Origin: an uncultured Gammaproteobacteria bacterium
GTDB lineage: Bacteria > Patescibacteriota > Microgenomatia > Levybacterales > UBA12049
Assembly (NCBI GenBank): GCA_964497535.1
Contig: CAZCCG010000001.1
Coordinates: 66,688-130,687 of the forward strand
Direction: 5' to 3'
Length of the DNA stretch: 64,000 bases
Shown one piece after another: positions 2,455-27,956 of this stretch (the stretch's first letter is position 1; every line of letters begins with the position of its first letter). The translations under genes were made by a program, and so were the position numbers. Below the pieces are notes generated by a model. It did no database searches. It saw nothing but the letters and a program-made list of their open reading frames with translations, and was not told the origin of the DNA.

Positions 2455-3216
2455 ATGACTATCAATGATGCATTAGAACAGATTGGGCTTACCCAAAGGG
2501 AATCTTTAATCTATATACACCTGTTAAAATACGGACCCTCTTCCCCTACAGAAATTGCCACTCAAACTTCTATCAAAAGACCAAATGTCTATGATGCAAT
2601 TAAATCCTTAGAAAAACAGGGATTGATCAAATACCACTTAGTCAGCAAAAGAAAGCTGATTGCACCAGAACCAGTAGAAAAAATTGAAGAGTTAGTCACG
2701 CACAGGCTCCACTTGGTCCAAAACTTAATTCCTAGCCTCAAAAGCATCAATCAAGAAGGGACTTTTAAAAGTACTATCACTTTCTATCAGGGTAAAAGAG
2801 CCATGGTTAACCTGCTCAAGGAAGTTTTATCTATGAAAGGCGGAGAATTATTGGGACTGTGGTCATCCCAAGACATGGATAGAATTCTGGATAAAAAAAC
2901 CATCCTCAGCTTTATCAGAACACGAGAAAAAAAAGGTATTAAAGCCAGAGTCTTGCATCATATGAAGAAAGAGGATTTAAAAGAGTATGGAGAAGAATTA
3001 GCCTCAGAAAGAGACTCTAAGATTACTCAAATAGGGTATGTCCCGGATAACGCTCTCTTCACGTTATCTATGTTAATTTACGATGATAGCGTTTCTTTCT
3101 TCTCCTCAAAAAAAGAAAGTTATGGGTTTAAAGTAGAAAGTAGAGAGTATGCAGAGCTTCAAAGAATGCTATTTGAAAACCTCTGGCAAAATTCCGGAAA
3201 GTTAAAACAAGAATAA
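2455..3216 (+). CDS. TrmB-family transcriptional regulator, paralog 2.
   Basis: Same N-terminal HTH motif (LGLTQRESLIYIHLLKYGPSSPTEIATQTSIKRPNVY). 253 aa. Collinear similarity to the 862 ORF along its full length. Confidence 0.75.
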   Translation: MTINDALEQIGLTQRESLIYIHLLKYGPSSPTEIATQTSIKRPNVYDAIKSLEKQGLIKYHLVSKRKLIAPEPVEKIEELVTHRLHLVQNLIPSLKSINQEGTFKSTITFYQGKRAMVNLLKEVLSMKGGELLGLWSSQDMDRILDKKTILSFIRTREKKGIKARVLHHMKKEDLKEYGEELASERDSKITQIGYVPDNALFTLSMLIYDDSVSFFSSKKESYGFKVESREYAELQRMLFENLWQNSGKLKQE

Positions 3217-3234
3217 TTTAGCCATGAAAAAGAG

Positions 3235-3262
3235 GCGGTTGGATTTCTCCTCCCGCCCCTGT
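3235..3262. terminator. Bidirectional intrinsic terminator between convergent genes.
   Basis: GC hairpin ggcgg..ccgcc(cc) flanked by a T-run on the plus strand (gcgtttt) and a T-run on the minus strand (ctcttttt). Confidence 0.5.
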
Positions 3263-3268
3263 TGCGTT

Positions 3269-3637
3269 TTAACGTCCGCCGACTTGACTTATCTCTTTTT
3301 CCTCAACCTCCTTTTCCGTAATGAATACGGCCACCATCCCCAGCAGGTAGACTGGAGTAAGGATCCCCTCCACTCCCGCTAGGCTCGAGGGGATGACCTC
3401 CTGAGTCACTAGGTACCAAAAGAGACACTGGAGTATCACCCCTGTGACACTCCAAATACTGCACTTCAACCAGTAGTGTGTCCACTTCTGGTTGACCTGC
3501 TCCTTCTTCTCATCGGGAGCACAGAATGTGCAGAAGATACCCCGTCCAGGAACCAGTTTTACCTGCCCCGCAATCAGAAGCTGCTGACACCGCCCGCAAA
3601 CTTTTTGAGCTTGCACGGGTCGACTCATTGCAGACAT
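3269..3637 (-). CDS. Hypothetical small membrane protein with CxxC..CxxC zinc-ribbon-like N-terminus.
   Basis: 122-aa ORF. CGRC and CTFC pairs are followed by a hydrophobic segment. Lies in a locally GC-enriched patch. Confidence 0.4.
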   Translation of the reverse strand: MSAMSRPVQAQKVCGRCQQLLIAGQVKLVPGRGIFCTFCAPDEKKEQVNQKWTHYWLKCSIWSVTGVILQCLFWYLVTQEVIPSSLAGVEGILTPVYLLGMVAVFITEKEVEEKEISQVGGR

Positions 3638-18955: not shown

Positions 18956-20665
18956 GTGCCAGAGCTGCAACTCTCATCAGCCAAGATTGTTTCAACCCCT
19001 ACCCCAGCCGCATGGTCACAGATTTATAATGCTGGTAAGTTTTTTGTTGTTGTCACCCTTACTCAGGAAACCGCGCAGGATGATGAGCTCGGGCAACTGG
19101 GGAAAAAGCTCCTCAATGCTATTGAAAGTGAGTATTTTCCGTTGGAAACAAAAACGCTTGCCAATATAAAATTGGCTCTCAAAACTGCACTTGAGCAAGT
19201 CCCTTCCCCTGTTACTGTCAGCTTACAAGCTGCCTCTTTTACTGATGATGTGCTATATGTCTTTGCAAAAGGCCAGGGAAGCATAATACTGTGTCGCCAA
19301 AAAACACTGGGAGTACTGTTAAAAGACCCCGCAGAATTAACTGCAGCATCGGGCAAAGTGCAAGGAGATGATTTATTTATTCTGCAGACACATACCTTTG
19401 GACAGCGTATCTCCCCTCATGCATTGCAAAATGCCGAAACTACCAATCCCTCGGAACTGGTAGAAATATTTAGTCCAAAAATCCACGAACATCAGGAAGC
19501 AACCGCTACGGGACTATTTATCAAAATCCAAGAATCCCCTGTACCTCTTGTGCAAGATTCCGAAGTAATTATGGAATCTGAGGAACCTTTACTTCCCCAA
19601 CCGCTGCCTGAAGAAGAAATCCTGCCTCAATCCTCCCATATCTCTTCCACTCATCGTTTTGCTCGTATGAAATTACCAATTCCCAACCTTACTCTCCCAC
19701 GACTCATTATGCTAAGTGTTGCTATTGCGCTTCTAATTATCCTGGTCATTAGTATCACTGCCACCATCCAAAGCAAAAAAGACCAGCAGAATCATGCGTT
19801 ATTTGAAAGCATTTATCCTCCCGCCCAAAAGAAATATGAAGAAGGGCAGGCACTTATATCTCTCAATAAAAATCTAGCTCGCGAGGATTTCCTGACCGCC
19901 AAAAAAATTCTGGATGAAAAAAAATCCGGGCTGATCCCCGGATCTTCGGAAGAACAACAAGTCACGCAACTTCTGGGCAAAATTAATGCGGTAGCCCAGG
20001 ATGCCTCAGGACAACAGACAGTAGAACCTCAAAAAGCCGCTGCTACCTCCAGCCCGCTTCTTTCTCTCCAGATAAAAACGCCCGGAGGGCTCGTAGCTGG
20101 TGAAGATACTACCCTCTATAGCATTACTTCTTCGGAAATTAAGAGTGAGAGTGGAAAATCGCTGGTAAAAAATAGTGACACATGGAAATCAACAAAAGGC
20201 TTTGGGGTATTCGGAGGAAATTTTTATGTACTTGATCCCAAGGGGAATCAACTGATCAAACTGGTTGCCGCAGGAAGTGACTATGCCAACTCAACCTATT
20301 TTGGATCCGGAATATCCCCGAGTCTTGCGTCTGCCACATCGCTTGGAATTGACGGATCGATCTATATTCTCTTTTCAGATGGATTGATTCAGAAGTTTAC
20401 CAAAGGAAAACCTGATTCTTTTAGCATCAACGGCCTGGATAAACCCTTTTCCAAACCAACACAACTGGTAACCAGCCCCGAAATGGATATTTATATTTTG
20501 GATAAAGGAAACAATCGCGTGGTAGTATTGCAGAAAAATGGGACGTTTAGTTCTCAATATGTCGCTCCGCTTCTAAAAGATGCTGACGCCATTGACGTAC
20601 AGGAGAAGAATAAAGTGATCTATATCCTCAAGGGAAAAGATATCTACCAGATACCTCTGAAGTAA
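18956..20665 (+). CDS. Hypothetical protein with central TM helix and C-terminal beta-propeller/NHL-like repeats; start uncertain.
   Basis: 569-aa ORF. TM segment LIMLSVAIALLIILVISI. C-terminal GNNRVVVL and repeated hydrophobic-beta patterns. Confidence 0.4.
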   Translation: MPELQLSSAKIVSTPTPAAWSQIYNAGKFFVVVTLTQETAQDDELGQLGKKLLNAIESEYFPLETKTLANIKLALKTALEQVPSPVTVSLQAASFTDDVLYVFAKGQGSIILCRQKTLGVLLKDPAELTAASGKVQGDDLFILQTHTFGQRISPHALQNAETTNPSELVEIFSPKIHEHQEATATGLFIKIQESPVPLVQDSEVIMESEEPLLPQPLPEEEILPQSSHISSTHRFARMKLPIPNLTLPRLIMLSVAIALLIILVISITATIQSKKDQQNHALFESIYPPAQKKYEEGQALISLNKNLAREDFLTAKKILDEKKSGLIPGSSEEQQVTQLLGKINAVAQDASGQQTVEPQKAAATSSPLLSLQIKTPGGLVAGEDTTLYSITSSEIKSESGKSLVKNSDTWKSTKGFGVFGGNFYVLDPKGNQLIKLVAAGSDYANSTYFGSGISPSLASATSLGIDGSIYILFSDGLIQKFTKGKPDSFSINGLDKPFSKPTQLVTSPEMDIYILDKGNNRVVVLQKNGTFSSQYVAPLLKDADAIDVQEKNKVIYILKGKDIYQIPLK

Positions 20666-20689
20666 AGAAATTTCTATATCAATTATGGC

Positions 20690-20746
20690 TAGTTTTACTA
20701 AAAAGGGTATTGTTTAGAATCTCGGCCGAGACTTTGACAATACCCT
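20690..20746 (-). terminator. Intrinsic terminator for the minus-strand transcription unit (long perfect hairpin plus U-run).
   Basis: aagggtattgt...acaataccctt encloses the ctcggccgag palindrome; on the minus strand it is followed by ttttt. Confidence 0.5.
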
Positions 20747-20944
20747 TATAAGGTTCCTTTGGTGATCCTCCACTCTAACAAAAAGTGAGTCTTATCACAA
20801 GACAAATTTATCAAGAGCTTTAAATGAATTCAATACCATTCTGTGTCATAACTCAATGTCAAAATATACTCTTACGCTTTTCTTACATGTTTAGCTTCAG
20901 TTTTTCGGTGTGTCAATTGCTGAAGAAAAGTTGGATATCTGAAA

Positions 20945-21259
20945 CTATTTCTCAATTAAATGCTTGTTTCTGAAGCCCCAGCCGGATGTTGTTTTCAGAT
21001 AATCCTCAAACTTCACTGCTAGATTTTTAGTAGTAAAAGCAGCATAAAATACCAATTTGAATGGTCGCAAGTTTTTAGTAGAAGTGACTGTTCCATCTTT
21101 ATGAGCTTGAATACGATTTTTTAAGTTATCGGAAAAACCATGATAGTAGCTCTTATCTTTCAGTTGGAGAATGTAGACATAATACACGAGGTAATTGTAG
21201 CAAAAACAAAAAAGTCCCCCTTCGCTAAAGCTACGGTAGGGACACTCTTCGCAAGCCAA
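20945..21259 (-). CDS. GIY-YIG nuclease family protein (UPF0213/YhbQ-like small standalone). The real start is probably the internal GTG, because the annotated N-terminus overlaps the ncRNA terminator.
   Basis: YYVYILQ...YHGFSDNLKNRIQAHKDG...KLVFYAAFTTKNLAVKFEDYLK matches the GIY-YIG core. Confidence 0.55.
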   Translation of the reverse strand: MACEECPYRSFSEGGLFCFCYNYLVYYVYILQLKDKSYYHGFSDNLKNRIQAHKDGTVTSTKNLRPFKLVFYAAFTTKNLAVKFEDYLKTTSGWGFRNKHLIEK

Positions 21260-21750
21260 TCTGAAACTTAATTCTTGTTAACGAAGTGTGGCTTGCCACT
21301 TCGTAGCCCTGATTTATCAGGGCGAAGAGTGGAGATGTCCGAGAGTGACCCGGAGTGCAAAAAAGTAATTAAAAAACGTGTACAAGCGTAGTCGATTTTT
21401 TAAGTGTCGCTTTGTACGATTCCAATCGACAGGATTTACAAAGCCAAGGTTTTAAATAAGCTCCATAAGGACAAAACCAAAGATCCCTATAAGTTCTCCC
21501 AACTTAGTTTGTGCTCATAAAATCCCGTTGAGAAAAGATTCTATGAACAGGTCTTAGGCTGCCATCGCGTAAGCGAAGGAAGACTGACCCGAAAGAGCTC
21601 CCAGCTCTGCAAGAGTTGCCTCTCGCATCGCAATGAGTCTTTCTCTCATGCTTAATTTAGCATTTATTATTTAATAGTGTTTTACGACTACTTATCAAAG
21701 TCGGCTTGCGTCTTTTCAATGTTCTTTAGTGTCGAATCAATGCATCCCCC
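21201..21750 (-). ncRNA. ssrA: Structured ncRNA immediately downstream of smpB; candidate tmRNA (ssrA) with a non-canonical or unrecognised 3-prime tRNA-like half.
   Basis: 5-prime end GGGGGAUGCAUUGAUUCGACAC resembles the tmRNA 5-prime consensus GGGG..GAUUCGAC. An in-frame tag-like reading frame ends ...SFAYAMAA-stop at plus-strand 21554. Multiple nested hairpins and a terminal GC hairpin plus U-run end at 21201-21243. Canonical GGUUCGAAUCC T-arm and CCA were not found. Confidence 0.3.
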
Positions 21751-21796
21751 TACGCCAAGGCTTCTTTTAAGCTTTTGCGAAGGCGAATATCGATTC

Positions 21797-22243
21797 TTAA
21801 CGTGCGCGGTTTCTTTTGAGTTCCTCCTGGACTTCTCGTTCTATGTCCTTTCTCTTGAGGGACTCTTTCTTTTGAAACTGCTTTTTCCCCTTTCCCAGAG
21901 CCAGTTCTACTTTTATAAGATGATGCTTATTATACAACGAAACAGGCACGATTGTCAAGCCCGCCCCATCCAATTTAGCCTTGATTTTGAGAATTTCCTT
22001 TTTATGCATGAGCAGTTTTCGTGTCCGTTTTTCGTCATATTCATCGGTTCTCATGAATTTATAGGGGAAAATCTTGGCATTGACCAAATATGCCTCACTT
22101 CCGATGAGCCTGGCAAAACTACCGGTCAGGTCTGCGTGGCCTTCCCGTATCGCTTTTACCTCTCCACCATTGAGCTTGATCCCAGCCTCAAACCGGTCAA
22201 GCAGTTGATAATCATAAAATGCCCGCTTGTTCGTAATCTTCAT
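21797..22243 (-). CDS. smpB: SsrA-binding protein SmpB.
   Basis: 148 aa. GEVKAIREG, SFARLIG and LLMHKKEI motifs typical of SmpB. Confidence 0.9.
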   Translation of the reverse strand: MKITNKRAFYDYQLLDRFEAGIKLNGGEVKAIREGHADLTGSFARLIGSEAYLVNAKIFPYKFMRTDEYDEKRTRKLLMHKKEILKIKAKLDGAGLTIVPVSLYNKHHLIKVELALGKGKKQFQKKESLKRKDIEREVQEELKRNRAR

Positions 22244-22326: not shown

Positions 22327-22398
22327 GCCAGGGTAGCTCAATGGCGGAGCACAGCATTCATAACGCTGAGGTTGTGGGTTCGATCCCCACCCCTGGTA
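22327..22398 (+). tRNA. tRNA with CAT anticodon (Met elongator, or Ile2 if lysidinylated).
   Basis: Cloverleaf folded by hand. Acceptor gccaggg/ccctggt with G1-U72. Anticodon loop ttCATaa. T-loop ttcgatc. CCA not encoded. Confidence 0.75.
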
Positions 22399-22399
22399 C

Positions 22400-23083
22400 T
22401 CAACCCTTAAATAAAGTTACTCCCCATACTTGTTTTGCGCCGTTTCGCTTCAGCACCTTCGCAGCTTCTTTAAGCGTGGAGCCGGTTGTTACCAAATCGT
22501 CTAGCAAAAAAATGATTTTCCCCTGCACGTCCCCTCTCACCCCAAAAGCATTTTTCATATTTTCTACCCGTTGCTTTTTATCCAAAGAGAATTGGGAATG
22601 GGTATTTTTTACCCGTATCAATGATTGTTCCACGGGGAGAGAAAGTTTTTTGGATAATCCTTGCGCCAGAAGCTGGGCATGGTTATATCCCCTTCTTCTC
22701 TGCCGATTGGAATGAAGCGGTATAGGAACCATGAAAACTTTCGGCCGATTTAAGAGCGTAGTAAATAGTTCTTTCTGAATAATCCCTTCATACAGTAAAT
22801 CAACCAGAACAGTATGTAAATCCGACAGATATGGTTTGTATTTAAAATTGTAAAGGAGTTTGTGGGCTACTGTGGAATAGTAAAGACTCGTGAAGACCCC
22901 ATCAATATTATACTTTGATATACATCCCGGATGAGTCAGGCCATCACTACTGGCACGCTCACACACGAGGCATTTGGAGACAAAATCAAAAGAAAGATAA
23001 GAAAAACAATCGGGGCACAGGTACGAACCGAATTTTTTGCAGGAAACACAGAATTTTGGAAAAAGCACATCCAGAATTCCCAC
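22400..23083 (-). CDS. comF: ComF-family protein (competence-associated phosphoribosyltransferase-like, ComFC).
   Basis: N-terminal Cys-rich zinc-finger (CVSCKKFGSYLCPDC...CLVC). C-terminal PRTase motif IFLLDDLVTTGSTL. Confidence 0.75.
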   Translation of the reverse strand: MGILDVLFPKFCVSCKKFGSYLCPDCFSYLSFDFVSKCLVCERASSDGLTHPGCISKYNIDGVFTSLYYSTVAHKLLYNFKYKPYLSDLHTVLVDLLYEGIIQKELFTTLLNRPKVFMVPIPLHSNRQRRRGYNHAQLLAQGLSKKLSLPVEQSLIRVKNTHSQFSLDKKQRVENMKNAFGVRGDVQGKIIFLLDDLVTTGSTLKEAAKVLKRNGAKQVWGVTLFKG

Positions 23084-23135
23084 CCTATGAGTGTAGCAAA
23101 TAAAAGCTATAAGATGATATAATCAAGCCTATCGA

Positions 23136-23222
23136 GGAGGAGTCGCATAGTTGGTCCATTGCGAGGGGTTGCTAACCCCTTGAGCCGCAAGGCTCGCGCA
23201 GGTTCGAATCCTGTCTCCTCCG
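23136..23222 (+). tRNA. tRNA-Ser (GCT anticodon).
   Basis: Acceptor ggaggag/ctcctcc. Anticodon loop ttGCTaa. Long variable arm gagccgcaaggctcgc. T-loop ttcgaat. Confidence 0.8.
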
Positions 23223-23266
23223 CAATAACTATACCCTATACGCTATAAAACTAAACGCTAGTTTAA

Positions 23267-23353
23267 GGAGAGATCGCATAGTGGACGAGTGCAGCGGTCT
23301 TGAAAACCGCCAGGGGTGCAAGCTCCTCGTGGGTTCGAATCCCACTCTCTCCG
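23267..23353 (+). tRNA. tRNA-Ser (TGA anticodon).
   Basis: Acceptor ggagaga/tctctcc. Anticodon loop ctTGAaa. Long variable arm. T-loop ttcgaat. Confidence 0.8.
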
Positions 23354-23393
23354 CAAATTGACTAAAGGAGCTAAATCATTTACAGTTAACTAT

Positions 23394-24107
23394 ATGGCTG
23401 CCCAAGACGATACAACAACACCTCCAGGTGAACAACACTATTTACCCAAAGAACCGCTTGATCTTCCTCGTGAAGAACTTGATTTACCCCGGCCGCCTCT
23501 GGATTTACCCAAAGAACCTGAGGAAATTACAGCTCATGTTACTCTTCCACCCCAACAACCACAAAATCAACATCACACTTCTGATGAGCACCGTTCTTCC
23601 TACTATGAAGTAAAGACTCTTTTGTCCTGGCATGCACCCGGCAGGCCGTTTCAACAACATACCAGACAATATTATATGAGCATACTCTTGATTGTCCTTT
23701 TATTAGAAGTTATTTCTTTTCTTTTCGCTCAATATCCCCTTATGGCACTGATTGCTTCTTTTGGATTTGTCATATTTGCGCTCTCAAGCGTTCCTCCTCA
23801 CAATATCCTGTATCGTATCAGCAACGAAGGCATAACTATTGAAGATTACTCCTATATCTGGGAGGAACTGTATGACTTTTATTTCAAACGCAGAGGTAAT
23901 ATAGACGTCCTGCATCTGCGAACCCGTGCATTTTTGCCGGGGGAAATTACCATAACATTAGGAGAAATTACGAAAGATCATATCAGATCGGTCCTGCTTC
24001 CCTATCTTCCCTATCGGGAGTTTGTAAAGCCTTCACTTCTTGAAAAAGGGGGGGATTGGCTGGTGAAAACATTCCCTCTGGAAAAACCTATTCATCACAA
24101 TAGCTAA
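23394..24107 (+). CDS. Hypothetical membrane protein with N-terminal PxxLDLP repeats.
   Basis: The ORF in the track starts inside the tRNA-Ser; the in-frame Met at 23394 is the more plausible start. Three LDLP repeats and two TM helices. Confidence 0.4.
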   Translation: MAAQDDTTTPPGEQHYLPKEPLDLPREELDLPRPPLDLPKEPEEITAHVTLPPQQPQNQHHTSDEHRSSYYEVKTLLSWHAPGRPFQQHTRQYYMSILLIVLLLEVISFLFAQYPLMALIASFGFVIFALSSVPPHNILYRISNEGITIEDYSYIWEELYDFYFKRRGNIDVLHLRTRAFLPGEITITLGEITKDHIRSVLLPYLPYREFVKPSLLEKGGDWLVKTFPLEKPIHHNS

Positions 24108-24153
24108 TTTGCTTCAGATATAAGAATACGCTAAAATACACTGGTGCTAACGA

Positions 24154-24229
24154 GTCCTCGTAGCTTAATGGATAGAGCATTGGATTGCGGATCCAAAGGT
24201 TGGGCGTTCGAGTCGCCCCGGGGACGCCA
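24154..24229 (+). tRNA. tRNA-Arg (GCG anticodon) with encoded CCA.
   Basis: Acceptor gtcctcg/cggggac. D-stem gctt/gagc. Anticodon stem ttgga/tccaa with loop ttGCGga. T-loop ttcgagt. CCA present. Confidence 0.65.
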
Positions 24230-24249
24230 GTTCCGTTTCACTATAGTCT

Positions 24250-25458
24250 ATGTTCAAGAAATTTTTTCTTGATTTTCTTTACTCTCAATATAATCGGGTT
24301 TTCGCCGGACAGAAAAATTACCACGATAGGATAAAAAAGAATTATAGCCTTCAATATATAAAACTTACCAATACTCTTCTGGCAAAAGACTTGGAGAAAC
24401 AGAGTACTTCCCATGGAGGATTCCTCAGCTTTGCCGATTATCTTACTACCGAACAATATGGAATGCATGGATATCACTCCCACGCATCGCATCATGGAGA
24501 AACAGGCATACACTTCAGATGGCCAAAGGCACTAGCATCACTGCTTGCACAACATGCTATCAAAGACATTATTGAATTTGGGCCGGGAGATGGGAGTCTT
24601 GCAGCCACAACGATGAGAGAAGCACACAAACTACACCTCTTTCCATCATGGACCGGCATTGAAATCAATTCACAACTGCAGGAAAAGATACGGAAAAGAT
24701 TTAAAAAAGAAAAAGTGAAAAATAGTTTCCAAGTTGTACCGTCTTTGAAGCAAGTACCATTCCAAAACCAAAAACTCGTTATTTTCCCTTATAGCCTTGA
24801 TAGTTTAGCACCTGAAATACTCATAAATACCACTGCTTCAATTGCTTTTCCTAATAAATTGATCGGTGTTACTGTTCAAAATAGTATGCTAAAGGAAATT
24901 CCGTTGGACCAACTATCGCAACTGTCTCTTGCAAAGGGGAAAGTATATACGACAGAGGGATTATCTTTTGATTTTAGTTCATGGAAACTATATCCAGGAC
25001 AACGGATATATGCACCTATCCAAGCATTCTCAACACTCTATTCTATTACAAAAAAGGTCCCGAAAGGATCTATTATTGTTATCATCGATGAATTCCGCCC
25101 TCCCCCCCAACCTCAAGAGAGAGATCACTTTGGACTACTTCGGGATCTCCATTTATTCAAGAGGGACGCATTCGACCTGGAGAAAGCATACAAAACTGCT
25201 GGAGATAACCTCTGGTATCATCCTTTTTATTTTGTGGATTATTACTCATTTCTGAACCAATTAGGTTTTAACCAAATTATCTTTGATAAAGAACAAAAGC
25301 TTGCCAGAATTCTGGCGGGTGATTCATGGACTACAAAAAATCGATTCTATCTAACATATGCTCTGATTACCGATTCCAAAAAAAAGGATCCTCCGAAGCA
25401 TTTTACGATCCCCTTTCCCTCACAAGGTGATAATATTCCTAAACCAGACCACCCATGA
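24250..25458 (+). CDS. Putative class I SAM-dependent methyltransferase, MidA/DUF185 (NDUFAF7-like) family.
   Basis: 402 aa. IIEFGPGDGSLA nucleotide-binding motif resembles the ELGPGRGTL block of the MidA family; family call from memory. Confidence 0.45.
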   Translation: MFKKFFLDFLYSQYNRVFAGQKNYHDRIKKNYSLQYIKLTNTLLAKDLEKQSTSHGGFLSFADYLTTEQYGMHGYHSHASHHGETGIHFRWPKALASLLAQHAIKDIIEFGPGDGSLAATTMREAHKLHLFPSWTGIEINSQLQEKIRKRFKKEKVKNSFQVVPSLKQVPFQNQKLVIFPYSLDSLAPEILINTTASIAFPNKLIGVTVQNSMLKEIPLDQLSQLSLAKGKVYTTEGLSFDFSSWKLYPGQRIYAPIQAFSTLYSITKKVPKGSIIVIIDEFRPPPQPQERDHFGLLRDLHLFKRDAFDLEKAYKTAGDNLWYHPFYFVDYYSFLNQLGFNQIIFDKEQKLARILAGDSWTTKNRFYLTYALITDSKKKDPPKHFTIPFPSQGDNIPKPDHP

Positions 25459-25479
25459 TATACTTCCTTGTAGGCTGAT

Positions 25480-25565
25480 GGAGGTGTGTCCGAGTGGTTT
25501 AAGGAGATAGTTTCGAAAACTATTGGGGCGAAAGTCCCTCAGAGGTTCGAATCCTCTCACCTCCG
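25480..25565 (+). tRNA. tRNA-Ser (CGA anticodon).
   Basis: Acceptor ggaggtg/cacctcc. Anticodon loop ttCGAaa. Long variable arm ggggcgaaagtccctc. T-loop ttcgaat. Confidence 0.8.
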
Positions 25566-25639
25566 CAACGTACAAAATCAGAGATTTTTACGTTGAGCCA
25601 TTAACTAAACGCTATACGCTATTAACTATACGCTCATTT

Positions 25640-25713
25640 GTCTTCGTAGTTCAGTTGGATAGAACGTCAGGTTCCGAACCTGAAGGTCGGAGGTTCGAGT
25701 CCTCTCGGAGACG
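25640..25713 (+). tRNA. tRNA-Arg (CCG anticodon).
   Basis: Acceptor gtcttcg/cggagac. Anticodon stem tcagg/cctga with loop ttCCGaa. T-loop ttcgagt. Confidence 0.8.
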
Positions 25714-25727
25714 CTAAGGTTCAACTT

Positions 25728-25760
25728 GCCCTCGTAGCTTTAACGAAGGGGGGTTCTTCT
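25728..25760 (+). terminator. Intrinsic terminator after the tRNA array; member of a recurring hairpin family (also at 21205-21243).
   Basis: gccctcgtagctttaacgaaggggg hairpin followed by gttcttct. Confidence 0.45.
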
Positions 25761-25810
25761 CAGGAGTACTCAAGCTTTGGCAGGCGGGGAGTCCTCTCGG
25801 AGATGCAAAA

Positions 25811-26935
25811 TTAACGCCCTCCGGCGCCCTTCATTTGCACAGCTTGTGCCTGAGTAACCATAATTCCTCCTTCAAGCATTGACAAACCGGCTAATTCTAA
25901 GATGGATTTCCAATCTATTTTCTTCCCTTTATTCAATTGGTCAACTACTGTTTCCATTGCTTTATTGGTTGCTGCTAGTGAGCTTTTAAGCGAATCTATT
26001 TGTTCTTTTAGTTCTTTTATTTGCTGTTGCTCTGGCGTTAAAGGAGCTTCTACTGATGTTTCTCCTTCTTGTGTTTGATCATTTTGCGCTCCCTCTTGCT
26101 GACCGTTGTTATTTACTGCAGGCTCTTGCGCCCCAGCTGCGGCTGTTTCTGCTCCATCTGTTGCTGGCTGTGCATCTGGATCTGTTATTACAGCTTCTCC
26201 TGCAGCGGATTGGGATCCTGCTTCCTGTGCTCGAGCATGATCAACTGCTGCCTGGACATATTCCCGAGTTGCATCATCCATTTGCCAGTTATTGTCTGCA
26301 TGAAGTTTAGCCATTACATCATCTACGTTTGTAGATCCGGAAATATCAATATTTAGATTACGCAATTCATTATATGCGCCTGCTCTTCGTGCAGCTTGTG
26401 CTTGTTCTGCGGCAGGATCAACTGTAGTATCCGGCCGGGCAGCTCCATCAGAAGCTTCTGTACCTGCGGCCGCAGCGGGTCTTACCCCTGATTCTGCTGC
26501 ACCTGTAGTGTTCTGTTCTCCCGGTCTCGGTTCTTCTGTTGAACCAGGAGCAGTCGGTCGTATACCAGGAGGTGTCTCTGTACTTACTCCGGCTTGATCG
26601 GTTCCTTCTGCAGGTCGTGGTGGCTCTGCCGCACCCGATGTTGCTGGCCGCTCAGCACCTGCGGCAGGTGTTCTAACTTCATCTACCATACCTGCTCTGG
26701 TATTGTCTGCGCCTGATGCCTGTGGTCCTTCTACTTTTACTCCTTTAGCACCCCACGCATTGCCTCCTTCTCCTCTAAATAACCCTTTGAAACCCTCTGC
26801 TCCTCGTCCTACTAACCCACGAATCCCACGGGCTGCTGCCTGGTTACGGGCGGAATCAACACCAGGCCTCGCTGCATCTGGTCTGACTGAGGAGCGGGCT
26901 GCTTCTTGCTGTGGTACGGGCGTTTCTGCTGCCAT
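25811..26935 (-). CDS. Hypothetical intrinsically disordered Ala/Pro/Gly/Thr-rich protein with C-terminal coiled-coil.
   Basis: 374-aa ORF of strongly biased low-complexity composition; the C-terminal 60 aa are predicted helical (QQQIKELKEQIDSLKSSL). Confidence 0.45.
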   Translation of the reverse strand: MAAETPVPQQEAARSSVRPDAARPGVDSARNQAAARGIRGLVGRGAEGFKGLFRGEGGNAWGAKGVKVEGPQASGADNTRAGMVDEVRTPAAGAERPATSGAAEPPRPAEGTDQAGVSTETPPGIRPTAPGSTEEPRPGEQNTTGAAESGVRPAAAAGTEASDGAARPDTTVDPAAEQAQAARRAGAYNELRNLNIDISGSTNVDDVMAKLHADNNWQMDDATREYVQAAVDHARAQEAGSQSAAGEAVITDPDAQPATDGAETAAAGAQEPAVNNNGQQEGAQNDQTQEGETSVEAPLTPEQQQIKELKEQIDSLKSSLAATNKAMETVVDQLNKGKKIDWKSILELAGLSMLEGGIMVTQAQAVQMKGAGGR

Positions 26936-26937
26936 AG

Positions 26938-27291
26938 TTATTGAGTCCCTTTCTGCATATCTTTTGCGATTGTTATTGCATGTTCGATATTGCCTTTACT
27001 AATCGCATTGCGCATTTTTATAAGCACTCGTTGTCGTTCGACTTCCTGCGTTTCATCTAGCTTTTCAACATAGACTTCTTGTGCCTCAGGATATATTTTT
27101 GCCAATTCTTTCAGCTTGTCAAGTAAATCCTGATGGTCTACGACCGGCAACATAGCCAGAAAACTCTGTGCCAGTTCTTTCGCTTTATCCGGATCAGTTT
27201 TGTTCTCTTCCAAATGCTTTGCTATTAACTCCAGCAATTCATTTGCCACCGTATCTACTTCTTGTTGGATATCCATATCACAACCAATCAT
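26938..27291 (-). CDS. Hypothetical acidic all-helical protein, translationally coupled to the 25811 gene.
   Basis: 117-aa ORF ending 2 nt before the next start on the same strand. Confidence 0.4.
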   Translation of the reverse strand: MIGCDMDIQQEVDTVANELLELIAKHLEENKTDPDKAKELAQSFLAMLPVVDHQDLLDKLKELAKIYPEAQEVYVEKLDETQEVERQRVLIKMRNAISKGNIEHAITIAKDMQKGTQ

Positions 27292-27383
27292 TACATACTA
27301 TAACCTTTTCTGTCAATAAATGCGCCAGAATAGACCATTACAAAACTTGTATCGACAATCCCTCTAAAGTACAATGAACATAT

Positions 27384-27848
27384 ATGAAATTTGAATTTTC
27401 AGCCGGGGGCATCGTGTATAAACGCCAAACTATGCAGAACCATACGCAAAACAACGCGGAAGATATTTTGATATTGGTTGCTCAGCATTCCGGGCATCAT
27501 GGATGGGTTTTTCCCAAAGGCCATATTGGAGATACTATACAAGGAGAGAAGAAAGAAGAGACAGCGGTGCGGGAAGTTGAAGAAGAAACTGGTGTTTTGG
27601 CAAAAATTGTTGAACCTCTTCCCCCGGTTACTTATTGGTACGTACTGAAGAAAGAAAAAATTAAAAAAACAGTATATTATTTCCTCATGAAATATCTCTC
27701 CGTGGATTCGAGCAAAAAAGATGAGGAAATGGAGCAGGTTGAATGGCTGCCAATTGACGAGGTAGAAAATCGATTAACATATCCCTCAGATAAGGACGTG
27801 TGGCAGGAAGCAAAGAAACATCTTGAGAGCATAACGAAAAGCGTTTAG
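27384..27848 (+). CDS. NUDIX hydrolase.
   Basis: Nudix box GEKKEETAVREVEEETGV; 154 aa. Confidence 0.8.
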   Translation: MKFEFSAGGIVYKRQTMQNHTQNNAEDILILVAQHSGHHGWVFPKGHIGDTIQGEKKEETAVREVEEETGVLAKIVEPLPPVTYWYVLKKEKIKKTVYYFLMKYLSVDSSKKDEEMEQVEWLPIDEVENRLTYPSDKDVWQEAKKHLESITKSV

Positions 27849-27872
27849 TTAGTAGCGTATAGGGTATAGTTG

Positions 27873-27956
27873 CGGAGGAGACAGGATTCGAACCTGCGAG
27901 AGCTTTCGCTCGTACGCTTTCCAAGCGTATGCACTGGGCCACTATGCGACTCCTCC
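27873..27956 (-). tRNA. tRNA-Ser (GGA anticodon).
   Basis: Minus-strand cloverleaf. Acceptor ggaggag/ctcctcc. Anticodon loop ctTGGAaa, read as GGA. Long variable arm. T-loop ttcgaat. Confidence 0.75.

Follow-up and report, generated by a model that had tools for sequence, protein, structure and literature searches.

The minus strand between positions 20900 and 22500 of a 64,000-nucleotide (nt) stretch of contig CAZCCG010000001.1, hereafter the window, contains a structured region downstream of smpB that a preliminary description had taken for a 550-nt divergent or permuted transfer-messenger RNA (tmRNA). The region very probably holds a one-piece tmRNA and, adjoining it, a mobile cassette of the homing type, composed of a structured leader that probably acts in cis and a minimal GIY-YIG nuclease gene. 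This reading draws on the identity of the tmRNA, an insertion polymorphism between close relatives, the association of the element with RNA 3' ends, the co-varying structure of the element, and a recent transposition that marks the left boundary of the mobile unit. The proposed tmRNA beside smpB is retained, as a member of RF00023, and the 550-nt length is not: the tmRNA body ends near 21330, and the last ~118-130 nt are a separate cassette element, since they are missing from the ~95% identical locus of the closest relative and are found after many tRNA genes. The principal features are as follows.

21330..21749, minus strand: body of the one-piece tmRNA (ssrA), from the 5' G to the discriminator A; the Rfam match reaches 21327
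21214..21331, minus strand: structured element, the cassette leader, as delimited by covariance model R1
20945..21187, minus strand: minimal GIY-YIG nuclease gene with a GTG start, 80 amino acids (aa); Pfam PF01541, 51.1 bits, cut-off 22.6
20666..21326, minus strand: 661-bp segment present in the window and absent from L001 in a pairwise alignment

Comparisons were made with 80 smpB loci taken from GTDB genomes, among which L001 is the contig of the closest relative (SmpB 89% identical), and with 80 metagenomic loci encoding the GIY-YIG subfamily, collected with a three-member alignment as query. In an Rfam 15 covariance scan of the whole window at curated cut-offs, RF00023 matched at 21327-21749 on the minus strand with 90.2 bits (cut-off 47, E ~1e-33) over model positions 1-374 of 374, and was the sole tmRNA match in the window. 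The interval 20900-21800 was also scanned at E <= 10, where neither the permuted-tmRNA model RF04321 nor any other Rfam family gave a real match; the permissive matches on the 3' element (mgtC leader, snoR64, CRISPR repeat and Noro_CRE) were all far under their cut-offs and at chance level. The suggested search with models for tmRNA, permuted tmRNA, RNase P and signal recognition particle (SRP) RNA thus left RF00023 only. ARAGORN, also suggested, called seven tRNAs and no tmRNA in the window. Since it fails as well on 12 of the 19 tmRNA genes of the lineage that Rfam detects, this miss is a weakness of the tool on the lineage and not evidence against a tmRNA gene.

The ends of the tmRNA could be placed from its acceptor stem and from relatives. 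The sequence GGGGGAUGCAUUGAUUCGAC begins 47 nt past the smpB stop, as the preliminary description had it, and sets the 5' end of the tmRNA at 21749. Along the entire gene, up to ...CATCTCCAC, the window tmRNA is ~95% identical to that of L001, and of the first 20 loci of relatives, 18 have a tmRNA detected by Rfam immediately after smpB. The parts of the tRNA-like domain are:

21743..21749, minus strand: acceptor 5' strand GGGGAUG, its G3 in a G:U pair with the 3' strand (read from the sequence)
21330..21337, minus strand: acceptor 3' strand CAUCUCC plus discriminator A, followed by CUC, with no encoded CCA
21338..21354, minus strand: T-arm UCCGG-GUCACUC-UCGGA, a 5-bp stem and a 7-nt non-canonical loop with a G:U closing pair

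In all 19 genes the acceptor is an identical GGGGAUG/CAUCUCC, in which G3 and U form the alanine identity pair. All 19 also have the discriminator A, then C, then variable bases, and none encodes CCA. An encoded CCA is also missing from six of the window's seven tRNA genes (22327-27956; the exception is tRNA-Arg(GCG) at 24154-24229), so its addition by an enzyme is a predicted genome-wide requirement and not a defect of this tmRNA. In place of a canonical GGUUCGAAUCC-like T-loop, whose absence along with that of CCA after A21330 had been recognised correctly, the gene has the loop GUCACUC, with the stem and the 7-nt loop length kept; relatives carry NUCAYUN loops on co-varying 5-bp stems. The tmRNA T-arm has been described as highly conserved, with a loop starting with UU (PMC1168896).

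The tag frame lies as expected for a standard tmRNA. An open frame ending in a Y-A-x-A-A type tag had been noted before, and it is borne out here as YAMAA followed by UAA at 21554-21556.

21554..21661, minus strand: tag frame, resume codon GCU 21659-21661, 35 codons AKLSMRERLIAMREATLAELGALSGQSSFAYAMAA, stop UAA 21554-21556

The frame closes with ...SGQSSFAYAMAA-UAA. The Rfam alignment sets the consensus resume codon on this GCU, right after AAUAAAU, and the tags that ARAGORN calls in relatives begin at the homologous codon (gene positions 86-91). In every relative the register is open from the conserved AAAU/GCU junction to a stop after an A-rich hydrophobic end, and the encoded peptides are homologs of one another. 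The window and L001 differ by six substitutions within the last 18 tag codons, four of them synonymous. Tags of relatives vary in length:

L003: ADSSIKAKLEAMREETLAELHALTGNSFVGQKALAYA, 37 codons, tmRNA ~3027-3454
L005: AKSSIEQELLAKIAKAQAKLDALRALKEQPAYAGAYALAA, 40 codons, tmRNA 2981-3417
L014: AKSSIQALRAEKDRILAELNGLYGGQQAYALAA, 33 codons
L004: AKNSISALKAERDAILAELSNLGGFRPAYALA, 32 codons
L010: 16 codons
L019: 13 codons

The published range of tmRNA tag lengths is 8-35 (PMC8012679), which the predicted tags of this lineage reach and, with 37 in L003 and 40 in L005, exceed. A helical-looking core, ..A(M/L)REx(T/I)LAEL.., is common to many tags of the relatives, and the lineage's tags are probably helical.

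Taken together, 21330-21749 on the minus strand reads as a genuine standard one-piece tmRNA of ~420 nt, typical of its lineage. It shares with the standard RF00023 tmRNA and SmpB the full model match, the G3:U pair, the tRNA-like domain, the adjacent smpB, a resume GCU past a conserved A-rich stretch and a tag ending in Y-A-M-A-A plus UAA; it differs in its T-loop (GUCACUC against UUCGAAU, with the G:U closing pair), in lacking an encoded CCA, and in a 35-codon tag at the top of the published range. The traits behind the label "divergent", namely the odd T-loop, missing CCA and long tag, are normal in the Levybacteria-like lineage, whose members have the acceptor, T-arm type and tag frame in common. 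With CCA added and alanine charged via the G3:U pair, the tmRNA would rescue stalled ribosomes together with SmpB, appending a tag of 35 residues (36 with the charged Ala) that ends in YAMAA. It is the ordinary rescue RNA of an ultra-small groundwater-type bacterium.

What follows the tmRNA differs between the window and its closest relative. At the empty site of L001, the 3' end of the tmRNA lies directly against the stop codon of a convergent 572-aa gene (...CATCTCCACCC followed directly by TTACTTC...), the ortholog of the window gene at 18956-20665 on the plus strand. (The 569-aa product of that window gene, which is convergent with the cassette, has a weak NHL-repeat match.) In the window, the 661-bp segment between the two holds the nested hairpins, the 80-aa GIY-YIG open reading frame (ORF), and a downstream hairpin with a U-run. 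In most other relatives the acceptor end is followed immediately by a plain terminator. No convincing att-like direct repeats or target-site duplication flank the 661-bp insertion.

The YVY...YHG, Arg and Glu motifs of the 80-aa protein align with 1ZG2, and its nearest solved structures are the UPF0213 proteins 1ZG2 (E 4.5e-8) and 1YWL (E 7e-4). It had no match in the NCBIfam, PHROGs or PADLOC libraries.

Between the tmRNA and the nuclease gene lies the 118-nt element, whose nested hairpins, together with a GC hairpin and U-run at 21201-21243, were already part of the preliminary description. Its helices are:

21322-21331 (5' arm) and 21243-21252 (3' arm), minus strand: outer stem P1, cactcttcgc/gcgaagagtg
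21307-21322, minus strand: hairpin a, ccctga/tcaggg
21282-21303, minus strand: hairpin b, cgaagtg/cacttcg
21214-21243, minus strand: hairpin c, GC-rich, directly after P1, with a symmetric GAA/GAA internal loop

The fold of 21201-21326 has an energy of -50.1 kcal/mol, with z = -4.05 against 200 shuffles. R1, a covariance model built from 13 element copies with the window copy excluded, finds the window copy at full length with every helix formed (81 bits, E ~3e-17). These scores, with the 90.2 bits of RF00023, put beyond chance the sequence features first listed for the region, all of which are present when the minus strand is read. R1 also finds ~46 of the 80 GIY-YIG loci and copies after the tmRNA in L020, L042, L059, L072 and L017. 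The spacer architecture is shared by the window, L020, L042, L059 and L072. The outer stem has the form CA-NN-CUUCGC ... GCGAAG-NN-UG, in which NN co-varies (CU/AG, CA/UG, CG/CG, GA/UC); the first hairpin is variable in sequence, the next is a conserved CUUCG-GUGGCANGCCAC hairpin, and the third, YCCCNN-G(A/U)AGC-UUUA-GCGAAG-NNGGGR, comes straight after the outer stem.

The outer stem reaches into the host RNA. An unconstrained search for the best long-range stem showed that P1 usually starts 1-4 nt (at most 8) inside it, and the P1 3' arm complements the terminus of its own host (UGGUG/..CACCA, UGUG/..CACA, GGCG/..CGCC). In a motif-anchored test, which fixed the conserved cores alone, the six nt flanking the core form 2.4 contiguous pairs within a locus and 0.7 between loci (permutation p <= 1e-4). 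In a curated table of 34 copies, aligned by hand because MAFFT shifted the register of the P1 arms between host classes, 88.7% of cells are paired, compared with 72.0 +/- 1.0% with shuffled partners. An R1-based alignment of the 38 best copies gave 92.0% paired cells, a figure somewhat inflated because these copies are fitted to the model, against 73.4% in shuffles (0 of 500) and 37-51% with slid partners. In the same 38 copies, 26 of the 28 pairs have changes on both sides, and double-sided cells number 193 where 54 are expected. The two innermost pairs of P1 are better read as part of a longer hairpin a. A generic stem count of G:U against A:C (73 vs 68) was uninformative and was replaced by counts in the defined helices, which on the sense strand gave 25 vs 7; this excess lends modest support to folding of the sense strand. 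As judged from these alignments, the element is best described as a conserved, co-varying structure that pairs with the terminus of its host RNA.

The element and its gene recur at the 3' ends of other RNA genes. By tblastn, GIY-YIG homologs lie immediately 3' of the tmRNA, and on its strand, in L020, L004, L010, L042, L059 and L072, of which L059 and L072 are proteobacterial-type metagenome-assembled genomes (MAGs), and 3' of tRNA-Ser in L005. At least 52 of these 80 loci have a same-strand tRNA or tmRNA, found by ARAGORN or by terminal-sequence pattern, that ends 45-250 nt upstream of the GIY-YIG gene, and Rfam added further tmRNA hosts. Hosts comprise the tmRNA and at least 12 tRNA types, including tRNA-Tyr, Cys, Arg, Glu, Ser, Asp, Ala, His, Met, Leu and Trp. 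Cassettes squeezed between two tRNA genes with few nt to spare occur at several loci (e.g. L098, L099). In both Patescibacteria and proteobacterial MAGs, the element precedes GIY-YIG genes right after a tRNA or tmRNA.

A second GIY-YIG subfamily (..YIGFT..KLIHYEYF..) was also observed 3' of the tmRNA, in L004 (3422-3575), L010 (3374-3500) and L016. Its spacer has a different sequence, yet pairs with the terminal CAC of the tmRNA (CACCGCGTCAA / TTGACGCGGTG).

Movement of the unit is seen most directly in two loci. L115, where the cassette follows tRNA-Ser (~110-330), and L117, where no RNA gene lies upstream (~1090-1300), are 100% identical from the junction CCGCC/TTCGC through the ORF and unrelated upstream of it. 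This is a recent transposition and defines the left boundary of the mobile unit, which therefore includes the P1 5' arm, a copy of the host's last ~5 nt. Elsewhere the copy in L017 is solo, with no GIY-YIG gene, that in L018 is solo or degenerate, and some loci carry two copies. Tandem partial duplications of element modules occur in L118, L120, L140, L153 and L154, and L126 and L128 differ by a deletion between two GCGAAG repeats, a pattern that points to recombination of these repeats. A gene-less remnant is also present in the window:

25715..25797, plus strand: remnant after tRNA-Arg(CCG) (25640-25714), a weak partial R1 match to hairpin c, 10.9 bits

The remnant has a hairpin-c-like CCCTCGTAGCTTTAACGAAGGGGGG and then AGTCCTCTCGGAGATG, a near-duplicate of the tRNA-Arg(CCG) 3' end; L001 has a different sequence at this site, also degenerate. 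The cassette is thus sporadic: present or absent in near-identical DNA, found on many hosts, and with one identical unit at two sites.

Further element copies were seen after additional tRNA genes on the same contig in L138 (1077-1190 and 1654-1851) and L110 (1047-1129). Upstream of the first L138 copy, the sequence resembles a truncated tRNA fused to the element.

Transcription signals around the two units are listed below.

21797..22243, minus strand: smpB (148 aa), Pfam SmpB 160.6 bits, stop 21797-21799
21929..21958, minus strand: candidate tmRNA promoter TTGACA-N18-TATAAT, 12/12, within the 3' part of smpB (promoter scan)
21201..21213, minus strand: U-run UUUUUUGUUUUUG past hairpin c, candidate intrinsic terminator (sequence and fold)
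21194..21202, minus strand: extended -10-like TGCTACAAT, 6 nt before the GIY-YIG GTG (read from the sequence)
20700..20747, minus strand: hairpin and U-run downstream of the GIY-YIG gene (inverted repeat I2), putative terminator

The best SmpB homologs are annotated as Candidatus Levybacteria or Patescibacteria. The TTGACA..TATA(A/C)T sequence is conserved at the nucleotide level, synonymous sites included, in the closest relatives only, and is not kept in distant relatives that have the same SmpB peptide; it is probably a sigma-70-type tmRNA promoter embedded in smpB. This conserved, perfect promoter makes the proposed co-transcription of the region with smpB doubtful. Transcription of the tmRNA in the window would run through the element and end at hairpin c and its U-run, which are likely the intrinsic terminator of the tmRNA transcript, and the 550 nt may for that reason be a single primary transcript. 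The U-run is missing after hairpin c in many other copies. At many other loci the end of hairpin c is only 2-12 nt from the ATG, and the hairpin overlaps a GGAGG-like sequence, a placement that suggests co-transcription and translational control. TGnTAnAAT-like boxes precede the start codon in several other cassette loci, and a near-leaderless promoter of its own may serve the nuclease gene.

The spacer between smpB and the tmRNA (21750-21796 on the minus strand; 4448-4489 in L001) contains hairpins with different stems and a similar loop, AGCTT(T)AAAAG. In the window spacer, the stretch GAAGCCTTGGCGTAGGGGGA, which continues into the start of the tmRNA, is similar to the 3' half of cassette hairpin c.

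We propose that the cassette spreads as a free-standing homing endonuclease gene targeting the conserved 3' ends of tRNA and tmRNA genes. The element would act in cis within a co-transcript of host RNA and cassette, defining or permitting maturation of the host RNA's 3' end at the discriminator or CCA, so that insertion is harmless. It would also terminate or attenuate read-through (in the window, through hairpin c and the U-run) and control nuclease expression. That the element is a cis-acting RNA which both keeps the insertion harmless and gates nuclease expression is a tentative suggestion, possible but short of probable.

Several points weigh against a homing cassette with an RNA leader as we describe it. 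With two genomes, either a gain in the window or a loss in L001 may account for the polymorphism. The 80-aa protein is a catalytic domain only and, unlike characterised GIY-YIG homing endonucleases, has no DNA-binding domain, which leaves sequence-specific homing unexplained. RNAalifold proposed that the host end pairs instead with the 5' arm of hairpin b. This pairing keeps 83% of cells and its companion helix 67%, compared with 94% for P1; it is the weaker of the two, and the fold may not be static. The model-based alignment is biased toward the model's own structure, yet the structure is upheld by the large margin over shuffled partners and by the agreement of the motif-anchored test and the curated table. 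Of the 25 G:U cells, 13 stem from one position, and a simple terminator scan did not call hairpin c, which has an internal loop. Finally, we infer an RNA-level function of the element only from its strand-consistent placement, its covariation and the modest G:U excess.

The main rival to an RNA-level role, though a rather unlikely one, is that the element works as DNA, as folded single-stranded DNA or a cruciform that serves as recombination or cleavage site of the GIY-YIG nuclease. Complementarity to the host 3' end would then reflect target recognition or the mechanism of insertion, by a logic like that of IS200/IS605 hairpins or integron attC sites. GIY-YIG enzymes are DNA nucleases, some of them structure-specific, such as Slx1, and several internal segments of the element copy or complement the host's terminal nt; the mobile unit carries the last ~5 nt of its previous host, and the reverse strand also scores weakly with R1. 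Against this stand the 25 vs 7 G:U over A:C in sense-strand helices, the constant transcribed orientation of the element between a strongly expressed RNA gene and an ORF, and the frequent overlap of hairpin c with a Shine-Dalgarno-like GGAGG just ahead of the start codon, all of which may be compatible with a role for the same DNA strand. Subterminal hairpins of the IS200/IS605 type carry short guide sequences that pair with the target, and the cassette likewise has short segments complementary to the last 4-7 nt of its target beside conserved hairpins. It differs in encoding a GIY-YIG protein and not an HUH transposase, with no evidence of single-strand transposition, so the likeness is an analogy only.

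More speculatively, the element and the 80-aa nuclease might represent a new class of minimal mobile elements for tRNA and tmRNA 3' ends in which the structured RNA, or the same DNA strand, gives specificity in place of a protein domain, an idea we regard as doubtful. The GCGAAG-NN.. arm complements host ends (ACCA, CAC, CGCC); once the host RNA is cut off, this arm would be free beside a conserved helix and, as a short guide, could direct the catalytic-domain-only GIY-YIG nuclease to new tRNA ends.

Alternatively, the GIY-YIG protein and its leader could serve the host as a processing or repair factor in tRNA and tmRNA biology. The tight physical link to tRNA and tmRNA 3' ends across phyla fits such a role, as does the wide distribution of the UPF0213/YhbQ family, which has no assigned function. 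A selfish cassette accounts better for presence and absence between near-identical genomes, for hosts that are many and different with two copies at some loci, for degenerate or solo copies and tandem fragments, and for an identical cassette at a non-RNA site (L117), and we consider a host function improbable.

It is very improbable that all 550 nt make up a single functional RNA in which the tmRNA carries an additional structured domain at its 3' end. The hairpin and U-run at 21201-21243 are the first terminator-like signal past the tmRNA, so that the primary transcript probably spans the region, and P1 overlaps the last acceptor base and the discriminator. However, the L001 tmRNA is nearly identical without such a domain, most relatives terminate right past the acceptor end, the same element follows ordinary tRNA genes ahead of GIY-YIG genes, and the Rfam tmRNA model is matched in full without it. 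A permuted or two-piece tmRNA, or another large RNA such as RNase P or SRP RNA, has next to no chance of being correct: only the non-canonical T-loop and missing CCA speak for it, and it is refuted by the end-to-end match of the one-piece model with no competing Rfam family.

For the homing-type cassette, the closest described analogue appears to be SegB of phage T4, a free-standing GIY-YIG homing endonuclease whose gene lies within the phage's tRNA cluster (PMC2330249). Both are GIY-YIG nuclease genes lodged between or after tRNA genes, sporadic, and presumed to spread by cutting cassette-free alleles. Unlike SegB, the cassette protein is a predicted nuclease of only an ~80-aa catalytic domain with no DNA-binding domain, and the cassette is chromosomal, in Patescibacteria and proteobacterial MAGs; it sits at the exact RNA 3' end behind a co-varying, host-pairing structure, of which none is described for SegB. 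The protein agrees with the UPF0213/YhbQ entries 1ZG2 (BH0048) and 1YWL (EF2693), its nearest solved relatives, in size and in the GIY, YIG, Arg and Glu motifs, whereas both entries are listed as 'hypothetical proteins', for which no connection with tRNA genes or a structured leader is reported. Tyrosine integrases insert genomic islands and prophages into the 3' ends of tRNA and tmRNA genes (PMC4131195). The cassette resembles these islands in its 3'-end target, in carrying the terminal nt of a host gene that stays intact, and in the displaced tRNA 3'-end copy at the tRNA-Arg remnant of the window; it differs in having no integrase, a length of ~0.35-0.7 kb, and a host overlap of ~2-8 nt instead of tens.

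The 118-nt element had no Rfam 15 match at E <= 10 in the window region or at E <= 0.05 in 20 other element loci, and literature searches on GIY-YIG proteins in connection with tRNA, tmRNA, Patescibacteria, YhbQ or UPF0213, in which subscription journals were thinly covered, returned no account of such an arrangement. Judged by Rfam 15 and the searchable literature, the element and cassette appear to be undescribed.

The tmRNA itself is of little weight, as a supported example of long tags and non-canonical T-loops in Levybacteria-type Patescibacteria, a group in which ARAGORN-based annotation misses most ssrA genes. The 3' element is weightier: it appears to be an uncatalogued, strongly co-varying structure that travels with a minimal GIY-YIG nuclease and occupies the exact 3' ends of tRNA and tmRNA genes in distant phyla. 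Comparative support for the element is strong, and its mechanism we infer. Should the element act as RNA, it would work in cis to let a selfish gene occupy essential RNA genes harmlessly, in a role parallel to that of self-splicing for intron-borne homing endonucleases. The cassette explains stray tRNA-3'-end fragments and odd hairpins beside tRNA genes in candidate phyla radiation (CPR) genomes, and it would place the large UPF0213/YhbQ family in a testable biological context for the first time.

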